Shown one piece after another: positions 19,614-29,363 of a stretch of 64,000 bases of DNA. The notes below the pieces were generated by a model. It made no database searches. It saw only the letters and a program-made list of their open reading frames with translations, and had not been told where the DNA came from. The number at the start of each line of letters is the position of its first letter. Within the stretch, counting starts at the first letter, position 1. A program made the translations under genes and the position numbers. This stretch comes from Sphagnum compactum (lineage: Eukaryota), in contig OZ234493.1 in the NCBI GenBank assembly GCA_965153455.1, forward strand, positions 23,860,213 to 23,924,212, given 5' to 3'.

Positions 19614-22152
19614 CAACCTTTGCAATCTGAACCTAAAAATGGCGTTCAAAATCTACCTAATTTTAGATGTAGATGGATAAACTTCATGGCACACCAAACA
19701 CCACAAATTGTGGTAACCCTTACACCACTAGGTTTTCGATGTTCTTTAGCACATTTGAGGTTTCTTCCTCAATGAATAACTTCACTCTTGACACATTTGT
19801 GTTCAACGTTTTTTAGCATTGCAAGATTATAATTTGTTCCTTTATTATAGAAAGAATTCAGGTAGATGTTTTTGAGCTCTACAAAAGTCTTAGGTCTTCT
19901 GGAAGGTCAATCACGTTTTTCGAAGAAGCTGTCTCTTGCCATATACCTGCAAAAATTCAATTTGTTCTACAAGGTCCATTACATTTCAGTCGAAACTTCT
20001 ATTTCCATGTATTGTTTCATAGTTCATTAATTGGGGTCAACATATATAAGCTATGGAAAAGATCAATGTGTTCTGCAAAGACTTTGTTTTTCAGATTTGT
20101 TATCATCTTGCATATGTATAAGCTCTACTGGAAAACTGTATCTTTTAGAAGATCCTCCCTTCTACTGTTCAAATTTCAACGACGGTGTTTTTTCCATACA
20201 ACTTGCATAAAATTGCAAACATCAGTACCATATGCACACCACATTTTTTACTTAAAGTTTATGTAGTTCAAACAAGTATCAATTTCATTTTCTAATATTC
20301 ATATGTAAGAGGTTCTGGTTTGAACTTAATCCATGGCAAGCCCGAGCTACACAATGGTGATGGATGATGCAAGACTAAAAGACAGGGTTAAAAGCCTAGA
20401 TTCCATTGTTAACTTGGATGGTCTTGCGTTCCTCGAAATAATGTCAAGCCCAAAGTACAATGTATTAGTGGATGATCCAACAATCATAAACGATGTTCCT
20501 TCAAGGGAAAGGGACCTTTTCCATAAATTGAAGGCCACAATTCAAGATCCTCCTCTTGGACCTTTTTTAAAAAATGATCTCATGTGGTTGCCACATCTCA
20601 CAAGTGGCCATGGTTTGTATAAGGAAGTTGAGGTTATAGTGATACCATGGAGTCAACTGGAGGATTCTGTTGAAGGGGAACAAAACAATCTAGATTTCCC
20701 TTGCAAGTTTACAAGAACAAAAGACCACATTAAGTCATCTGCCCCAAGCACGTTGACACACCTAAGAACAAATTTTGTTATTCTTATTTATAGGTGCAGA
20801 TTATAAAATGCACAGTTCATCCATTTCATTCCAATGTTAACATTTTATGGATGCTCAATGTATTGAGGCATGCAATGTCTTCATTTCTATCTAATGTTTT
20901 TTTCTAAATATCACAATATGATTAATTTTATGGCAATTTCATAATTTGAAGAATGTCCATGGAAATTTTCATTCCATAACAATTGTTGTGTTTGTAGGTT
21001 TTTTTATAACTTCGGACCAAAAGATAGAACCCATGTTCTTCCAGGAGACATGCAAAAGCTTCTACTATCTATGCAACAAAAACGGAAGTGAAGGAAGGTC
21101 AATGATGCATCCATGAGATGAGACGAAAGGGAAAGAAACCGTTGATAGAGATACATGAATCCACTAATTTGTCAAGGCAAAGCACAAGGATAGGGAAGAT
21201 GATGTCTGGGATGTTAATTAAGCATGGGCGTCAAAGGTCTTTCATTGCAAAACAACCATATTTGGACCACAACTTATGTCAATTGATCTACCTCCATGCA
21301 AAACATACAAACAAAGAAGGAGTGGTTTGCCATGGGACAGCTGTGATTGGATACCGACATGCATTGGGTTCACAATTATCCGATGCCATGAAAGCACACC
21401 TCATGCAACTTTTAAGGCACGGGTTGTCCCTTGCGCAAGTCATGACACGTCATAAATCATATGTCAAGGAACAAGCACAACAGAATGAGCTTTTTACCCA
21501 TGACATATTTGTCTTACCATTAGATGTTAGAAACCTAGCCACAAAGAGAGCCGATGAATTATGGCAAAAACATCTTAAGGACCCAATTAGTGTGAGAATG
21601 TGAGTTTTGGAAAACCTGGAATTGGTGTTCTTTTATTTTGAACATGCCCCTTTGGATCTCAATTTACTGAAGCAAGATGAAACCCTTTTCACATTAGGGA
21701 TTCAAACCACTTGGCAATCAGAAATGATGGCAAAATTTAGACATGGGAGTTGCTTCTCATTTTATGCTACATTTGGAACAAATCAAACCAGGGTATGTCA
21801 TCATCCTCCATTATCCCAATTCCAACACATTGTCTTTCTATAACACAAATTTGATTGACATGGAATACAAATGTGTTTTCATACTAATCATTTTGAACAT
21901 GTTTTCTATGTTTCTCCAGTACCCTTTGTACACCATGATGGTGTTGAATGAATGGCAAAATGGAATACCAATTGCATTCATAATAATTGGGAAAACTTGA
22001 GAATGTGACTTAGACCACGTATTGAGAGCATTATCACAATGAATGCCTAGTGGCTAGATGCCAAACACTATCATTGTGGACAATGCATAAGCTGAAATCA
22101 ACGTTTTGAAGTATGATATGTCACTTCCCTACCTCTCAACACATGGTCATTG

Positions 22153-22382
22153 TGTCATGGCCTAGGATATTTTGGGATACTTTTGGCAATATCATGGCGT
22201 AGGATATTTTGGGATACTTTTGGCAATATCATGGCCTAGGATATTTTGGGACTAGTATGGCTCAGGGTTATAAAAGGAGATAGTCTGGGGAACAACCCTT
22301 TAGCAGATCAACACCAGTTGATGGGTCAATAAATCTTGTCTTGTCTTGTAATTCTCCACTTGTTTGTAGTCGGTCCATAACA
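22153..22382 (+). repeat. 5' LTR (U3 with ~2.6 copies of a 37-bp repeat, TATAAAA at 22269-22275, AATAAA at 22328-22333)
   Basis: Direct repeat of 27920-28149 with about 7 mismatches counted by eye; TG...CA termini. Confidence 0.97.
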
Positions 22383-22525
22383 GTTTGATCTGCTCCTTCT
22401 TCTTGTTTGTTTGTTTTGTTGTTTCAGTAAGTAGCTAGAGGTATATTGGAGTGAAACTTGGAAAGGTTATAGAAGACTATAGGACGCTTCTACTCTCAAA
22501 GTTTCAAAAGAAAAATATATGTTTT

Positions 22526-23176
22526 GAGAGAGATCCAAGCATCTGAAGTTTCAAGTGCAGATCTGGTTTTTTGGTCATATCTCCTTTGTGTAAGCTTTTT
22601 TGGGTCTGTAACTTTGTGATCTTATAGATCATATAGGAATATATGTGTGAGAGAAATTTCATGTCATTTGGACTTGTATTGAGAGAGATTCAAGCATCTG
22701 AAGTTTCAAGTGCAGATCTGGTTTTTTGGTCATATCTCCTTTGAGTAAGCTTTTTTGGGTTTGTAACTTTGTGATCTTATAGATCATATAAGAATATATG
22801 TGTGAGAGAAATTTCATGTCATTTGGACTTGTATTGAGAGAGATCCAAGCATCTGAAGTTTCAAGTGCAAATCTGGTTTTTTGGTCATATCTCCTTTGTG
22901 TAAGCTTTTTTGGGTCTGTAACTTTGTGATCTTATAGATCATATAGGAATATATGTGTGAGAGAAATTTCATGTCATTTGGACTTGTATTGAGAGAGATC
23001 CAAGCATCTGAAGTTTCAAGTGCAGATCTGGTTTTTTGGTCATATCTCCTTTGTGTAAGCTTTTTTGGGTTTGTAACTTTGTGATCTTATAGATCATATA
23101 GGAATATATGTGTGAGAGAAATTTCATGTCATTTGGACTTGTATTGAGAGAGATCCGAGCATCTGAAGTTTCAAGT
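22526..23176 (+). repeat. Tandem array of 155-bp units (~4.2 copies) in the retrotransposon 5' leader
   Basis: GAGAGAGAT(C/T)C(A/G)AGCATCTGAAGTTTCAAGT recurs at 22526, 22681, 22836, 22991 and 23146 (exact 155-bp period); copies are nearly identical. Confidence 0.95.
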
Positions 23177-23214
23177 TTGAAGATTGAAAGCGCAAAAGTG
23201 TGAGAACTACCACC

Positions 23215-24189
23215 ATGGACTACTCAGAATCCAACATCGATCTCACTCAAATCCTCGCCGCCCTTCAGCACCTTCAACAAGAAAATGCCGTGCTTAGAGA
23301 CTCGGTGACCCGCCTACAGAATCAACCACCACCTCCTACCCCAGTACTTCCTGCTCTTGCAATGGCCGCCCAAGAGCCCAAGATCAGTCTGCCAGAAAAG
23401 TTTGATGGAACGCGCCTCAAATTTCGACGCTTTGTCAGCCAGGTACGCCTGATCATGCAACTACACCCTCGTCGTTATTTTGATGACACCACTCGTGTAG
23501 GATTCGTTGGAACCCTACTCACTGGGACAGCTGCAGCATGGTTTGCTCCCATCCTGGAAACATCATCCCCTCTTCTACAAGATTTCAACGCCTTTATGGC
23601 GAAATTTGAAGCAGTATTTGGGGACAGTGATAAGGCCAGGACTTCAGCCAACAAGCTGCATCGCCTCCAGCAAGGGACACGTTCGGCCATCGTCTACGCG
23701 TCAGAATTCAGGCAGCTTGCCTATGACGTCAATTGGGGAGAAGCTGCCTTGATTGATCAGTTTTGCTATGGGCTTCGTGATGATGTTCAAGATCTTTTGT
23801 TGACACTCGCAGACCCTTCTTCCTTCAGTGAAGCCATCACCCAGGCAATTCGGTGCGATAATCGTCTGTTCGAACGTCGCTAGGAGAAGAAAGTCACCTC
23901 CAACGCCCAGCTTTGGAACAGTCGGCCTACTACGCTCCCCTTAGTTCCCCAAACAACACCAGTTGCCCGACCTGCCTCTTTTGGACCTGCTCCGATGCAG
24001 ATCGACACAGCTAAGTTTAAATCTTTGACAGAAGCCGAGAAACATCGCCGAAGGACAAACAATCTATGTCTTTACTGTGGTAACCCAGGGCATATAGCTC
24101 GTCAATGCTCTCAAAAGCTTGTCAAACTTCAGGTACAAGCTGTGGAAACTCCCCAGGAGTTGGAAAACAAGAACATCCAATCACAGTAG
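23215..24189 (+). pseudogene. gag: gag (PEG10/Rtl-like capsid plus CCHC zinc knuckle) with a premature TAG at 23881-23883
   Basis: PEKFDG..KFRRF, LLTGTAAAW, L.QG..S...YASEFR.LA, ..GLRDDVQD; continues in frame after the TAG to PMQID and [14 protein letters not shown]. Confidence 0.9.
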
Positions 24190-27100
24190 GAGCCGTGCGA
24201 CTGGATCTCACCCAACACCACCTTTGCAAAGGCTCCTGTTCCACTGTTGGTCCCAGTCCCAGTTTCACTCAATATGTGGACATCATTCGTATTCCAGAAG
24301 ACATACCACAAGTGTCAGCTTTGGTGGACTCCGGCGCCACCTCTTCTTTCATCGACCAAACATTTGTCGTCCAACACAACATCCCTGTGGTCAAGAAGTC
24401 AACCCTTGTTCCGGTAGAGGTTATTGATGGGAGAACCATTGCTTCTGGTGCAATCACACACGAGACAACCCCTCTAGAACTCTGTATCGGCAAGCACACG
24501 GAGAAGATTGTTCTCAACATCATTTCCACCCCTCACCATCCCATCATCCTTGGTCTGCCTTGGCTAGAAGCACACAACCCTATCATTGATTGGCGATCTA
24601 GAACCCTCACCTTCAGCGCACAACGATGCACCTCTCAAGAACCCCACGCTCAGAAAAACACTTTGTCCAGTCCTGCCAAGAACCCTGTGGTCGAGAACCC
24701 AAAGAGGGTCGGAACCAATTCCAATTTTATCAAGTCTGTTATGTCAAATCCTGCAGTCAAGAACCCCCGGTTGGTCAGAACGAAACCTTGTCCTGTCAAG
24801 AATCTTGTCAAGAATCCTGCCCAGAAAACCAACCCTGTCCAGATCTTCGTTGATAGAGCTGTCCCTTTCTATCGGGCTGCTAAGAATCTTTAAGTCTTCG
24901 CCATCCATGTCAACCCAGCCAACACCACAAACCCCCAATTAGAACCAACACCTGTCAAACTTCCCAAGAAGTACAAGGACTTTGTTGATGTTTTTTAAAA
25001 GATTAATGCTGATCAGCTCCCTGCCCATAGTCCATATGACTGCCCGATTGATCTAGAAGAAGGACACTCACCACCCTTTGGTCCTATCTGTGGCCTATCG
25101 GAACCGGAACTCCAAGCCCTGCGTGATTACCTTACTGAAAATCTTGCCAAGGGGTTCATTCAGCATTCCAAGTCTCCAGCCGCCGCCCCAATTTTGTTTG
25201 TCAAGAAGAAGGATGGCTCCCTTCGACTCTGTGTGGATTATCGTGGACTCAACAAGATAACCAAAAAGAATCGATATCCTTTGCCCTTGATTTCAGGTCT
25301 TCTAGATCGACTACGTACCGGGAAGATCTTCACCAAGCTTGACCTCCGTGGAGCCTACAACTTACTCAGGATTCGCCCTGGTGATGAATGGAAGACAGCT
25401 TTCCGCACACGCTATGGCCACTTCGAATACACTGTCATGCCCTTCGGCCTCACCAATGCACCCGCAGTCTTTCAGCATCTGATGAATGATATCTTCCGGG
25501 ATTACATGGACGAATTTGTCGTGGTCTATTTGGATGACATTTTAATCTTTTCCAAGGACCAGGAAACCCACGACAAACATGTACGATTGGTGCTTGCAAC
25601 GCTGCGGGAGCATGGCTTATACGCCAAGTTGGAAAAATGTGAATTCGATAAATCTTCAGTGGCGTTCCTCGGCTACGTGATCTCTCCAGATGGCATTTTC
25701 ATGGACAAGTCAAAGGTCGAGACCATCCAGTGTTGGGCTACTCCATCCTCGGTCAAGGACGTTCAACGCTTCCTAGGGTTTGCCAACTTCTATCGTCGAT
25801 TTATCAAAGGCTACTCCAAGATCACAACACTGTTAATAACCCTGACTTGCAAAGACAAGCCCTTCTCGTGGAATCCAACGGCCTAGGCTGCTTTTGATAC
25901 TCTTAAGATGGCATTCACCTCTGCACCCATCCTGATACATCCCGATCCTGCCAAGCCATTCATTGTGGAAACGGACGCTTCAGATTTTGCCTTGGGAGCT
26001 ATTCTATCTCAATTTGGAATAGATGGGTTGCTGCATCCAGTTGCTTTTTATTCACGGAAGTTAACCAGTGCCGAAATCAACTACCAGGTCTACGGTAAGG
26101 AACTTCTGGCAATCATCATGGCATTCGAGCAATGGAGACCGTATCTTGCCGGAGCTCAACATCGAGTCCAAGTTCTGACAGATCACAAGAATCTCCTTTA
26201 TTTCACAACTACTCGGACCTTAAATCGTCGCCAGGCACGCTGGTCTATCTTCCTAGCTGATTTCGACTTTGAGATTCAGTATCAACCCGGCACCCAGCAA
26301 GGGAAAGCTGACGCACTATCTCGTCGTTCAGAATATGAACTTCGAGCGGGGGATGAGGCCTACAGCCAGCAGAACCAGACTTTACTCAACCCCAAGCAAT
26401 TTCGAGTTGCAGCAACAATCAGCACCCTCCCAGACTCATACCTTGTCAGGGACATCAAGATGGCAACTGAGGAAGACACCTGGGCTACCAACATCAAGAA
26501 GGAACTCCAGGAACGACCAAGGAACCCAAATCGTGATGACTTGGATCAATTTGAGCAGCAAGACGGACTTCTCCTTCGAAATAACCTGATTTATGTACCC
26601 GAAGGACCTATACGCCTAAAAATCCTGAGGGAATGCCACGACAACACCCTGGCAGGTCACTTTGGAATGGCACGGACTCACGAACTAGTGTCAAGGACTT
26701 ACTGGTGGCCCAAAATGAACAAGATGCTACGGGAGTATGTCAAGTCTTGTGATACATGTGCTCGATCCAAGGCTCCCAGGCATCGCCCGTTTGGACTCCT
26801 ACAGCCTCTGTCGATTCCTAACCGACCTTGGGATCTATTGTAATGGACTTCATCACGGACCTCCCTACTGTCAGAACCAAGAATTCAATACTGGTTGTGG
26901 TCGATCGACTCACCAAAATGGCCCATTTCACCCCTTGTTCCAAGTCAATCACGGCAGAAGAGACAGCTCAGTTAATTCTGGACGGGATCGTCCGACTGCA
27001 TGGACTCCCCGAGGAAATTGTGTCCGACAGAGGTCCTTAGTTTGCATCCAAGTTCTGGCATCGTCTATTCGAGCTTCTTAGAGTTGACATTCGGCTATCT

Positions 27101-27919
27101 TCAGCTTTCCACCCTGAGACAGATGGACAAACCGAACGGACAAACCAGACACTCGAGCAATACCTTCGCTGCACTGTGAACTACCAACAAGACGACTGGC
27201 TGGACCTACTATCTCAAGCAGAGTTTGTTTATAATAACACAACACATGCATCGACCGGGGTCAGTCCATTCTTTGCCAATTACGATTTTCATCCCAGGTT
27301 CAGCCTTGAAATTCCTAGAGACTCTGTAAACCCCTCGGCTGAAGAAAGGGCCACGAGGCTTGGACAGGTTCAACAGAACCTTATGGCAGAACTCAAGCTA
27401 ACACAGGAGTGGCAAAAGAAGCAAGCAGACCGCCGACGCAAGGACCATCCAAACTTCAAGGTTGGAGACAAGGTCTGGCTTCTCAGAAAGAACATTGCTA
27501 CCACTCGCCCATGTGCCAAGTTGGATTACAAGCGCCTTGGACCTTTCAAAATCGCCAAATTGGTTGGTCTAGTGGCTTGCCAGTTGGAGCTTCCACCCCA
27601 GTTCAAAATCCACAATGTTTTCCATGTCTCCCTGCTTGAGCCCTATCATGAAAACCCGATCCCAGAACGTCATCAAGAACCCTCAGCTCCAGTCGAAATT
27701 GAAGGCCAGAAAGAGTTTGAAGTTCAGGAGGTCTTGGACTCCAAGAAGATTCGTGGAAAGCTCCTGTACCTTGTCTTTTGGCGAGGTTATCCTCCTTCTG
27801 AAGCTACTTGGGAGCCTGCTGGAAACCTAGTTCATGCCCAAGACTTAGTTAATCGGTTTCACTAACGATATCCTAACAAACCGGCTCCATCTAGAAGATG
27901 TCGCTTGAGGAGAGGATAA
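24162..27919 (+). pseudogene. pol: pol (aspartic protease, RT, RNase H, integrase, chromodomain) in the -1 frame relative to gag
   Basis: ALVDSGATSSFID (PR); [35 protein letters not shown] (RT); ETDASDFALG, TDHKNL (RH); HD...GH...CDTC, MDFI, SDRGP, TDGQTE (IN); FEVQEVLD....LYLVFWRGY....TWEP (chromodomain). Stops at 24891, 24996, 25884, 27038 and 27863; 1-nt frameshift near 26831. Confidence 0.95.
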
Positions 27920-28149
27920 TGTCATGGCCTAGGATATTTTGCGATACTTTTGGCAATGTCATGTCCTAGGATATTTTGGGATATTTTTGGCAATATCATG
28001 GCCTAGGATATTTTTGGACTAATATGGCTCAGGGTTATAAAAGGAGATAGTCTGGGGAACAACCCTTTAGCAGATCAACACCAGTTGATGGGTCAATAAA
28101 TCTTGTCTTGTCTTGTAATTCTCCACTTGTTTGTAGTCGGTCCATAACA
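27920..28149 (+). repeat. 3' LTR
   Basis: Follows the PPT, is a direct repeat of the 5' LTR and is followed by TSD CATTG. Confidence 0.97.
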
Positions 28150-29363
28150 CATTGGGTGACAATGTACATGGATGTTCATATCCTATTCCATCCATTTCAT
28201 TATTGTTTGGGGCATCCATCTCCAAAATATTATTAATGTTTGCAAATCATTTCCATTCATTATAAGTGTCACTTTGTTTCCCTGTACACTTATTTATATA
28301 TGACCATTGTAATTTTAGGGAGTTGTTTCATATCTTTCCACCATTGCATAGAATAGAATGTTTTTAGGAATGTTGTAGAAACTTGTAGGTTTGCTCTAAT
28401 GTTCAATATCTCATGTTATTCTTGTTATTTTCTATTGTTATTTCAACATAGGAATGTTTGGCCAGATGCCCAAATTATATTGTGCTTGTGGCATGTCCAG
28501 AAAGCTTGGGCTAAAAATATTGTCAAGAAGATTGTAAATCCACAAGAAAGACCCAACGTCCTATCAATGCTTGGGAGGATTATCTATTCTTGAAGATGTC
28601 CCATTGATGCTGACCCTATTTTTTGGGTAGAACAAGAAATTGAAATGCTCGCAACAAATTTTCCCAATGTAAGACTTTTCATTCAATACCTTAAAGAACA
28701 TTGGTTGCAAAAGGTAAGAATGTGGTGTGTTGGAAACCATAATATACCACTGCAGGGTAAGGACACAAATTTTGCGGTGGAATCATTCCATAGCAACCTT
28801 AAGCAAATTTTGTGTTCTTCACGAAAAAAAGTTATAGAGTGTCGAATGGATTAGCTCATTTACCACCTAGTTGGTGATGTCCTTACTCACTATTGGTATG
28901 GTGTGCAATGCAAGATCTTTGGTTACATCATGAACAAAAAAAGTGAAGGAATTGTCGTTAGTGTTATGCTTCGAGCCCGTGACATCTTATCCACCAATGT
29001 TTTGTTATACCCAAATGGGGATGACATTGCTTTCGTGGCGTCTTGTAATCCACCCAAGGTCTGGACCATGCATGCCCTGGGTTCTGAATGGCTTTGATGC
29101 GACTGGCCTCTTGCAGCACAAAGGATTATTTGCAAGTTGTTATAAAAATTTACAAGATGCTCTATCCAACCATTCTTAATGGTGCGATTGTTTGAGAAAC
29201 AAGTATTTTTCATGGGGTGCAAATGGGATCCCTAGTAATAGACTTGCCAACTCTTGAAGACTTGTTTCTTAAAGAGGAACACAACCTTCCACAAATCGAG
29301 GACTTTCCCACCTCTCAAGATATAGAACATCATGATCTCTTGCAAACAAGCAACATCAGCAAC

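Follow-up and report, generated by a model that had tools for sequence, protein, structure and literature searches.

In the Tf1 retrotransposon of Schizosaccharomyces pombe, the primer-binding site (PBS) next to the 5' LTR pairs with the first 11 nt of the element's own RNA, and RNase H was found experimentally to cut between nucleotides 11 and 12 (PMC7175516); the PBS of Tj1 from S. japonicus was read as self-primed likewise (PMC4600332). Such self-priming is a mark of the Tf1/sushi group. In plants, Neumann et al. 2019 (PMC6317226) reported that most elements of the Tcn1 clade, found in mosses and club-mosses, are without a tRNA PBS, with 83% of the elements predicted to be self-priming on the criterion that a stretch beginning 0-5 bp past the 5' LTR be complementary to this LTR over at least 10 bp, and with a tRNA-Met PBS in 5%. 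The same source describes priming by half-tRNAs for some copia lineages of plants, and uses self-priming as one argument for an old transfer of Tcn1-like elements from fungi to plants. Self-priming in the plant Tcn1 clade is thus already known as a prediction and is not new, and the novelty implied by the original prediction for the element described here was overrated. What is new is a family with compensatory changes and an invariant spacing between TATA box and primer, a sister family with a primer/PBS pair of its own, and evidence of transcription.

The element was found in a stretch of 64 kb of Sphagnum compactum DNA, hereafter the window, to whose numbering all positions refer unless stated otherwise. 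Self-comparison revealed a complete LTR retrotransposon of 5,997 bp, present as a single copy within the window, with the following features:

22148-22152, forward strand: left copy of the target-site duplication CATTG, with an identical 5-mer after the 3' LTR
22153-22382, forward strand: 5' LTR, 230 bp, TG...CA (direct repeat, LTR alignment, blastn)
22153-22301, forward strand: U3, 149 nt (LTR divided at the predicted RNA start)
22302-22382, forward strand: R from 22302, about 50 nt, followed by U5, about 30 nt, to 22382 (from the position of AATAAA)
22155-22251, forward strand: 37-bp tandem repeat in U3, 2.6 copies (Tandem Repeats Finder)
22269-22275, forward strand: TATA box TATAAAA (sequence)
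22302-22311, forward strand: predicted self-primer AGCAGATCAA, exact complement of 22385-22394, at the putative RNA start
22317-22326, forward strand: R arm of a predicted second helix, with its partner at 22373-22381 (RNAalifold consensus)
22328-22333, forward strand: AATAAA polyadenylation signal, in R (sequence; sense RNA depth minimum at 22332-22353)
22373-22381, forward strand: U5 arm of the predicted second helix (RNAalifold)
22385-22394, forward strand: primer-binding site TTGATCTGCT, 2 nt past the LTR end (sequence, covariation, RNAalifold)
22520-23176, forward strand: 155-bp tandem repeat, 4.2 copies with 97% matches, in the 5' leader between PBS and gag (Tandem Repeats Finder, direct repeats)
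23188-24186, forward strand: gag with a CCHC knuckle and an in-frame stop at 23881-23883 (ORFs, Pfam)
24084-27862, forward strand: pol, with protease, RT, RNase H, integrase, SH3_Tf2-1 and chromodomain (ORFs, Pfam)
27907-27919, forward strand: polypurine tract GAGGAGAGGATAA, abutting the 3' LTR (sequence)
27920-28149, forward strand: 3' LTR, 230 bp (direct repeat, LTR alignment, blastn)
28150-28154, forward strand: right copy of the target-site duplication CATTG (sequence)

Pfam domains were detected for gag, its CCHC knuckle, protease, RT, RNase H, integrase (with its zinc domain), a Tf2-1-type SH3 and a C-terminal chromodomain. The pol frame differs from that of gag and overlaps its end, so that gag and pol occupy two overlapping frames, whereas Tf1 has a single ORF. 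Apart from the stop in gag, damage was found in pol, where a stop separates RT from RNase H and the frame changes near protease/RT and integrase, and the two LTRs differ by 7 mismatches (96.96% identity over 230 bp by blastn and LTR alignment). With these stops and frameshifts and an LTR divergence of 3%, the window copy is dead, and the PBS seen in it is therefore a relic of the priming mechanism; gag relatives with an intact reading frame of 324 aa do exist. The number of units of the 37-bp repeat in U3 varies among copies of the family, other copies having more of them, and 111 RNA reads showed a joint going back 37 nt, corresponding to an extra unit. The distance from PBS to gag is about 780 nt in one further copy (L027), measured by hand, vs. 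815 nt in the window, and given this similar distance the 155-bp array in the leader may be a feature of the family. Around the insertion site (20300-22152 and beyond 28155), intron-like gaps were seen together with pieces of ORFs resembling, by eye, a decayed transposase of the MULE/FAR1 type; Pfam searches on four flanking ORFs gave nothing above the cut-off.

The original prediction had started from two observations around the 5' LTR, the lack of a TGG-type tRNA PBS after it and a 10-mer complementary to the LTR itself, and both were borne out. TGG is absent from the 64 nt past the 5' LTR, the first one appearing at 22447, and ARAGORN detected no tRNA gene either in the window or in the window together with 81 family and relative loci. 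Reading and a script both reproduced the complementarity (10/10 nt) of TTGATCTGCT to AGCAGATCAA, the coordinates of the two 10-mers, and the start of the latter 33 nt after that of TATAAAA. Pairing in the window is exactly 10 bp long, the adjoining base on either side being mismatched. As a control for chance, 17,994 random 30-mers were drawn from the window, of which 34 (0.19%) had a complement of at least 10 nt in the LTR; when the LTR was shuffled instead, such a complement arose in 15 of 20,000 shuffles (0.075%). In both controls the k-mer could start 0-8 nt into the 30-mer and its complement could lie anywhere in the LTR; they were thus generous to chance, as the match did not need to fall at the expected start site.

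By its domains, the element is a chromovirus. Its chromodomain (Pfam Chromo, E 2.1e-13) has F, W and Y at the three positions that form the aromatic cage in HP1. Three metagenome proteins are 89-93% identical to its RT and the remaining ones aligned 67-77%, with identities of 59-64% to the best matches from frog and Ustilago vs. 46-54% to angiosperm proteins. In an unrooted RT tree, the clade of the window element (support 96) came together with frog, fish and Ustilago sequences, and a branch with support 99 parted this side from the angiosperm and charophyte sequences; in a second tree, a translation with 14 stops (L083) spoiled the rooting. The RT phylogeny proposed along with the original prediction set the element apart from angiosperm and charophyte chromoviruses and among fungal and vertebrate ones, in a comparison with frog, fish, Ustilago, angiosperm and charophyte sequences that does not fix the order among the groups. 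The placement of the RT, the cage residues of the chromodomain, the 5-bp target-site duplication, the length, the overlapping gag and pol frames and the self-priming together point to membership of the Tcn1 clade.

In order to follow the two 10-mers through the family, copies were collected by protein, with 438 gag relatives at E of 1e-5 or below, and a search with the gag alignment gave 80 metagenome loci of the same family (77-91% gag identity). The junction between LTR and leader was spanned by 35 of these 80 loci, which with the window made 36 alignment rows. Two loci were left out of the pairing count, L002, from which the PBS is deleted, and L065, in which the contig end cuts the site, leaving 34 rows (33 loci and the window); among them, L026, L031 and L061 are identical to each other, and so are L024 and L063. 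The 10-mers pair by ten Watson-Crick pairs in 11 of the 34 rows and by nine plus one G-U in six, whereas a single mismatch was found in 11 rows, one mismatch plus one G-U in two, and two mismatches in four. At least one true mismatch is therefore present in 17 of the 34 copies, as expected for decayed copies.

Despite this decay, 94.5% of the 311 cells in the 33 distinct rows are paired, vs. 23.7-53.4% when the 3' partner is slid by 1-3 columns. Changes on both sides were found at three of the ten pairs, in 13 cells. In 500 shuffles, the values of the real alignment for percentage paired, double-change cells and covariation score were never reached, whereas the count of pairs with double changes (equalled in 221 of 500 shuffles) and the pair types (420 of 500) were not unusual. 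The cleanest case is a pair changing from U-A to C-G (23:8), with both sides changed in eight copies and none of 31 unpaired. On a copy tree built without the primer and PBS columns, this double change corresponds to two events, one in a divergent subfamily and the other in L021, and two events are too few for a sign test on independent pairs to be able to reach significance. In the main subfamily the primer and PBS read AGCAGATCAA and TTGATCTGCT, and in the divergent subfamily (seven loci) and L021, with both sides changed, AGCAGACCAA and TTGGTCTGCT. At the second pair, in contrast, changes were never matched, three cells being unpaired and five G-U. Many changes in primer and PBS are C-to-T or G-A transitions at CAG/CTG, as in the decay of methylated DNA, and some of the variation is therefore noise among dead copies. 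A local hairpin in R (ATCAAC...GTTGAT) is disrupted by the primer's T-to-C change, which is nevertheless compensated in the PBS; this suggests that it is the long-range pairing that was kept.

No indel was found between TATA box and primer in any of the 34 aligned copies, and positions -1/+1 are pyrimidine/A in all 34 (C|A in 28, T|A in 6). R and U5 together measure 81 nt in the main subfamily vs. 137-142 nt in the divergent one. The divergent copies (L069, L071, L073-L076 and L080) carry two insertions in R/U5, of about 26 and 30 nt, and in five of the seven AATAGA replaces AATAAA; primer/PBS pairing is kept in them by the change on both sides.

A different matching pair was found outside the family. 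Scanning prokaryote genome assemblies with the RT alignment gave four stray eukaryotic contigs (L082-L085), none of them with two LTRs; they come from MAGs labelled cyanobacterial, deltaproteobacterial, Nitrospira and Methanosphaera, where they are probably binning contamination. The RT of L082 is 72% identical to that of the window element and belongs to the same RT clade (support 97), outside its family. In this contig's own numbering, CAGTCTCGACAA at 128-139, 31 nt after a TATA box at 97, pairs with TTGTCGAGACTG at 282-293 over 12 nt. The PBS is preceded by ...GACA GT in L082 and by ...AACA GT in the window. This is the sole inverted pair of at least 9 nt in the 470 nt upstream of gag, a length of 12 nt being reached by 2 of 1000 shuffles, and the duplex appears in both the MFE and the centroid folds. 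The layout is thus common to L082 and the window family, whereas most primer letters differ, which argues against a common host RNA as primer and, judged from the two sets of letters, amounts to covariation at the level of families. Together with the compensatory changes among the copies, the L082 pair bears out the covariation of the two 10-mers that was expected if they pair.

Further away, a locus from a search of viral contigs (L081; RT 58% identical, GC-rich), probably a fungal relative, has a 9-nt pair lying 35 nt after TATAAATA and 2 nt after ...GACA. As one of four such pairs in 2 kb, it is not significant, and it is suggestive of a self-primer pair by its position only. For the other prokaryote-assembly contigs, the 5' sequence of L083 and L084 is too short for a pair search, and that of L085 gave only AT-rich, low-complexity pairs. 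The motif TATATTGGAGT occurs in the leaders of both the window element (22442-22452) and L082 (about 313-323), which are otherwise unalike; as a tRNA PBS it was rejected, being too distant from the LTR and too short after TGG, and it may be a packaging or dimerisation signal. In addition, one metagenome protein with 72% RT identity (P0062) contains dUTPase Pfam domains inside pol; a dUTPase has been described in some fungal Tcn1-like elements (Novikova et al. 2010, PMC2864245).

Folding of the RNA was examined in two ways. From the sequences only, reaching from the primer to just past the PBS, RNAalifold found the primer/PBS helix de novo, together with a second helix of 9 bp (22317-22326 with 22373-22381) just inside the primer/PBS duplex. 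The latter helix, a candidate for the U5-IR-like stem expected beside the duplex in Tf1-type elements, showed one-sided changes only and stays a prediction without covariation support. The primer/PBS duplex was also present in the MFE fold of 22302-22420, although the energy of this fold is ordinary (z -0.88, with 35 of 200 shuffles folding as well).

To follow transcription, four data sets were mapped to 22200-22520: raw reads of a poly(A) RNA-seq run bearing the same species label, contigs from two metatranscriptomes, and a run that is probably DNA. About 12% of the raw run yielded 183 placed RNA reads. Read pairs whose first mate is on the minus strand reached depths of 19-89, vs. 0-12.5 for the opposite direction, which in a usual stranded library means sense transcripts. 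The reads cover U3, R, U5, PBS and leader, their depth being lowest at 22332-22353, immediately past AATAAA, and eight of them leave the LTR end at 22382 into unrelated flanks. Contigs of runs labelled as moss or plant metagenomes cover 22206-22449 with 12 differences; in sets X8 and X9, contigs reaching from U3 to the PBS could stem from DNA, from read-through or from joins made in assembly.

As for the start site, in this 12% of one poly(A) run no pile-up of read starts was seen anywhere on 22200-22520, there was no step in depth at 22302 (27.6 to 26), where sense depth continues from U3 into R, and no loose poly(A) ends were listed among the RNA reads. Such a flat profile can be explained by reads from the 3' LTR, which would also lie over U3 and R, and by read-through transcripts; it is compatible with a start at 22302 and gives it no support. 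Only a minority of copies share the T at 22301, C standing there in nearly all the DNA contig depth and in 8 of 26 RNA reads. From the position of the TATA box and the conserved pyrimidine/A, we infer that the RNA of the family starts at the A of 22302.

Our results make it likely that the site past the 5' LTR is a PBS primed by the element's own RNA, that is, self-priming of the Tf1 type in a Tcn1-like (Tf1/sushi-group) chromovirus of a moss. This was also the reading of the original prediction, a plant element with Tf1-type self-priming from a fungal-like Tcn1 lineage, and it is supported by the covariation of the pairing, the sister family, the domains and the grouping of the RT. In the steps we propose, the RNA would begin with the A of 22302, some 33 nt downstream of the TATA box; its first 10 nt, whose pairing is present in the sequence, conserved and co-varying, would fold back onto the PBS 2 nt beyond U5; RNase H, by analogy with Tf1, would cut just past the paired stretch; and the freed 3' end would, by the same analogy, prime minus-strand DNA synthesis through U5 and R.

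That the two 10-mers of this decayed element match by coincidence, and say nothing of how it was primed, seems highly improbable. A single 10-mer match can arise, at 0.075-0.19% per trial, and the z-score of the fold is unremarkable; however, the match falls at the expected start site, it is conserved in 34 copies that show two-sided changes, and L082 has a counterpart of different sequence. Alternatively, the helix could be real and selected, but structural, holding the leader closed for packaging, for dimerisation or for strand transfer, with priming left to a host RNA, for instance a tRNA half or a fragment without its CCA end. The half-tRNA primers of some copia lineages and the tRNA-Met PBS of a minority of the Tcn1 clade give this some precedent in plants (PMC6317226), and the predicted second R/U5 helix would fit a larger structural domain. 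Against it, the primer must anneal beside U5, where the only conserved and co-varying complement is the start of the element's own R, and the site of L082 differs and yet matches its own LTR, so that no single host RNA could fit the two. TGG is likewise absent within 64 nt past the LTR, and it is only by this absence and by the covariation that a tRNA half or fragment would be excluded as primer. On balance we regard a structural helix with a host primer as unlikely.

A further possibility touches the cause of the covariation. If the primer were copied into the new PBS in each cycle, the two sites would stay matched by the mechanism itself and not by selection. In the general retroviral model, plus-strand strong-stop DNA copies the primer while it is still attached to the minus strand, and the Tf1 self-primer is reportedly, as a 2006 title by Atwood-Moore et al. 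has it, not removed. Such copying presupposes self-priming and leads one to expect the same data as selection does; it is a refinement more than a true rival, and as the sole cause of the matched changes we think it quite improbable.

Returning to self-priming by the element's own RNA, a broader proposal can be put forward tentatively, its parts falling, when taken jointly, somewhat short of an even chance. The family and its sister family would provide the first comparative evidence, in the form of compensatory changes, that Tf1-type self-priming operates in land plants. The layout would be fixed, with TATA box, 31-35 nt, primer, and then the LTR end CA, 2 nt and PBS, and would be common to the fungal-like L081; the transcribed family could serve as a plant model, and the match may be renewed each cycle by copying of the retained primer. 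The picture of how such elements work is unchanged by these results.

The family may already stand in the element list of Neumann et al. 2019 (PMC6317226), and our literature search gave no paper joining Sphagnum with a chromovirus and none of relevance joining it with Tcn1. Among the known systems, Tf1 and Tf2 of Schizosaccharomyces pombe and Tj1 resemble the window element in being Ty3/gypsy elements with a chromodomain integrase and a PBS complementary to their own RNA, with no tRNA PBS (PMC7175516, PMC4600332). In contrast, Tf1 pairs over 11 nt, vs. 10 nt in the window family and 11-12 in L082, its host is a fungus and not a moss, hence of another kingdom, and its RNase H cut is backed by experiment, whereas here self-priming is predicted from comparison of sequences. 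Predicted self-priming also occurs in plants in the TAR lineage of Ty1/copia, for 89% of its elements (PMC6317226); these belong to another superfamily, with the copia domain order and no chromodomain.

SM-Tcn1 of Selaginella moellendorffii is a Tcn1-like chromovirus from a non-seed plant, likewise with TG...CA LTRs, a 5-bp duplication, a TATA box, a polypurine tract and a thymine-rich stretch past the 5' LTR (PMC2864245). For that element neither tRNA priming nor self-priming was evident to Novikova et al. 2010 (PMC2864245), whereas the self-primer of the window element is plain, so a clear positive case now stands where the study of the Selaginella relative found no primer site. With the Tcn1 clade of REXdb (PMC6317226), the window element shares the moss host, the chromodomain, the 5-bp duplication, the overlapping gag and pol frames, a length of 5,997 bp inside the clade range of 5,466-9,444 bp, and the kind of complementarity from which self-priming was predicted there. 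The prediction made for that clade was based on complementarity alone (PMC6317226); the compensatory changes in an abundant, transcribed moss family, together with its sister family, strengthen it with comparative support.
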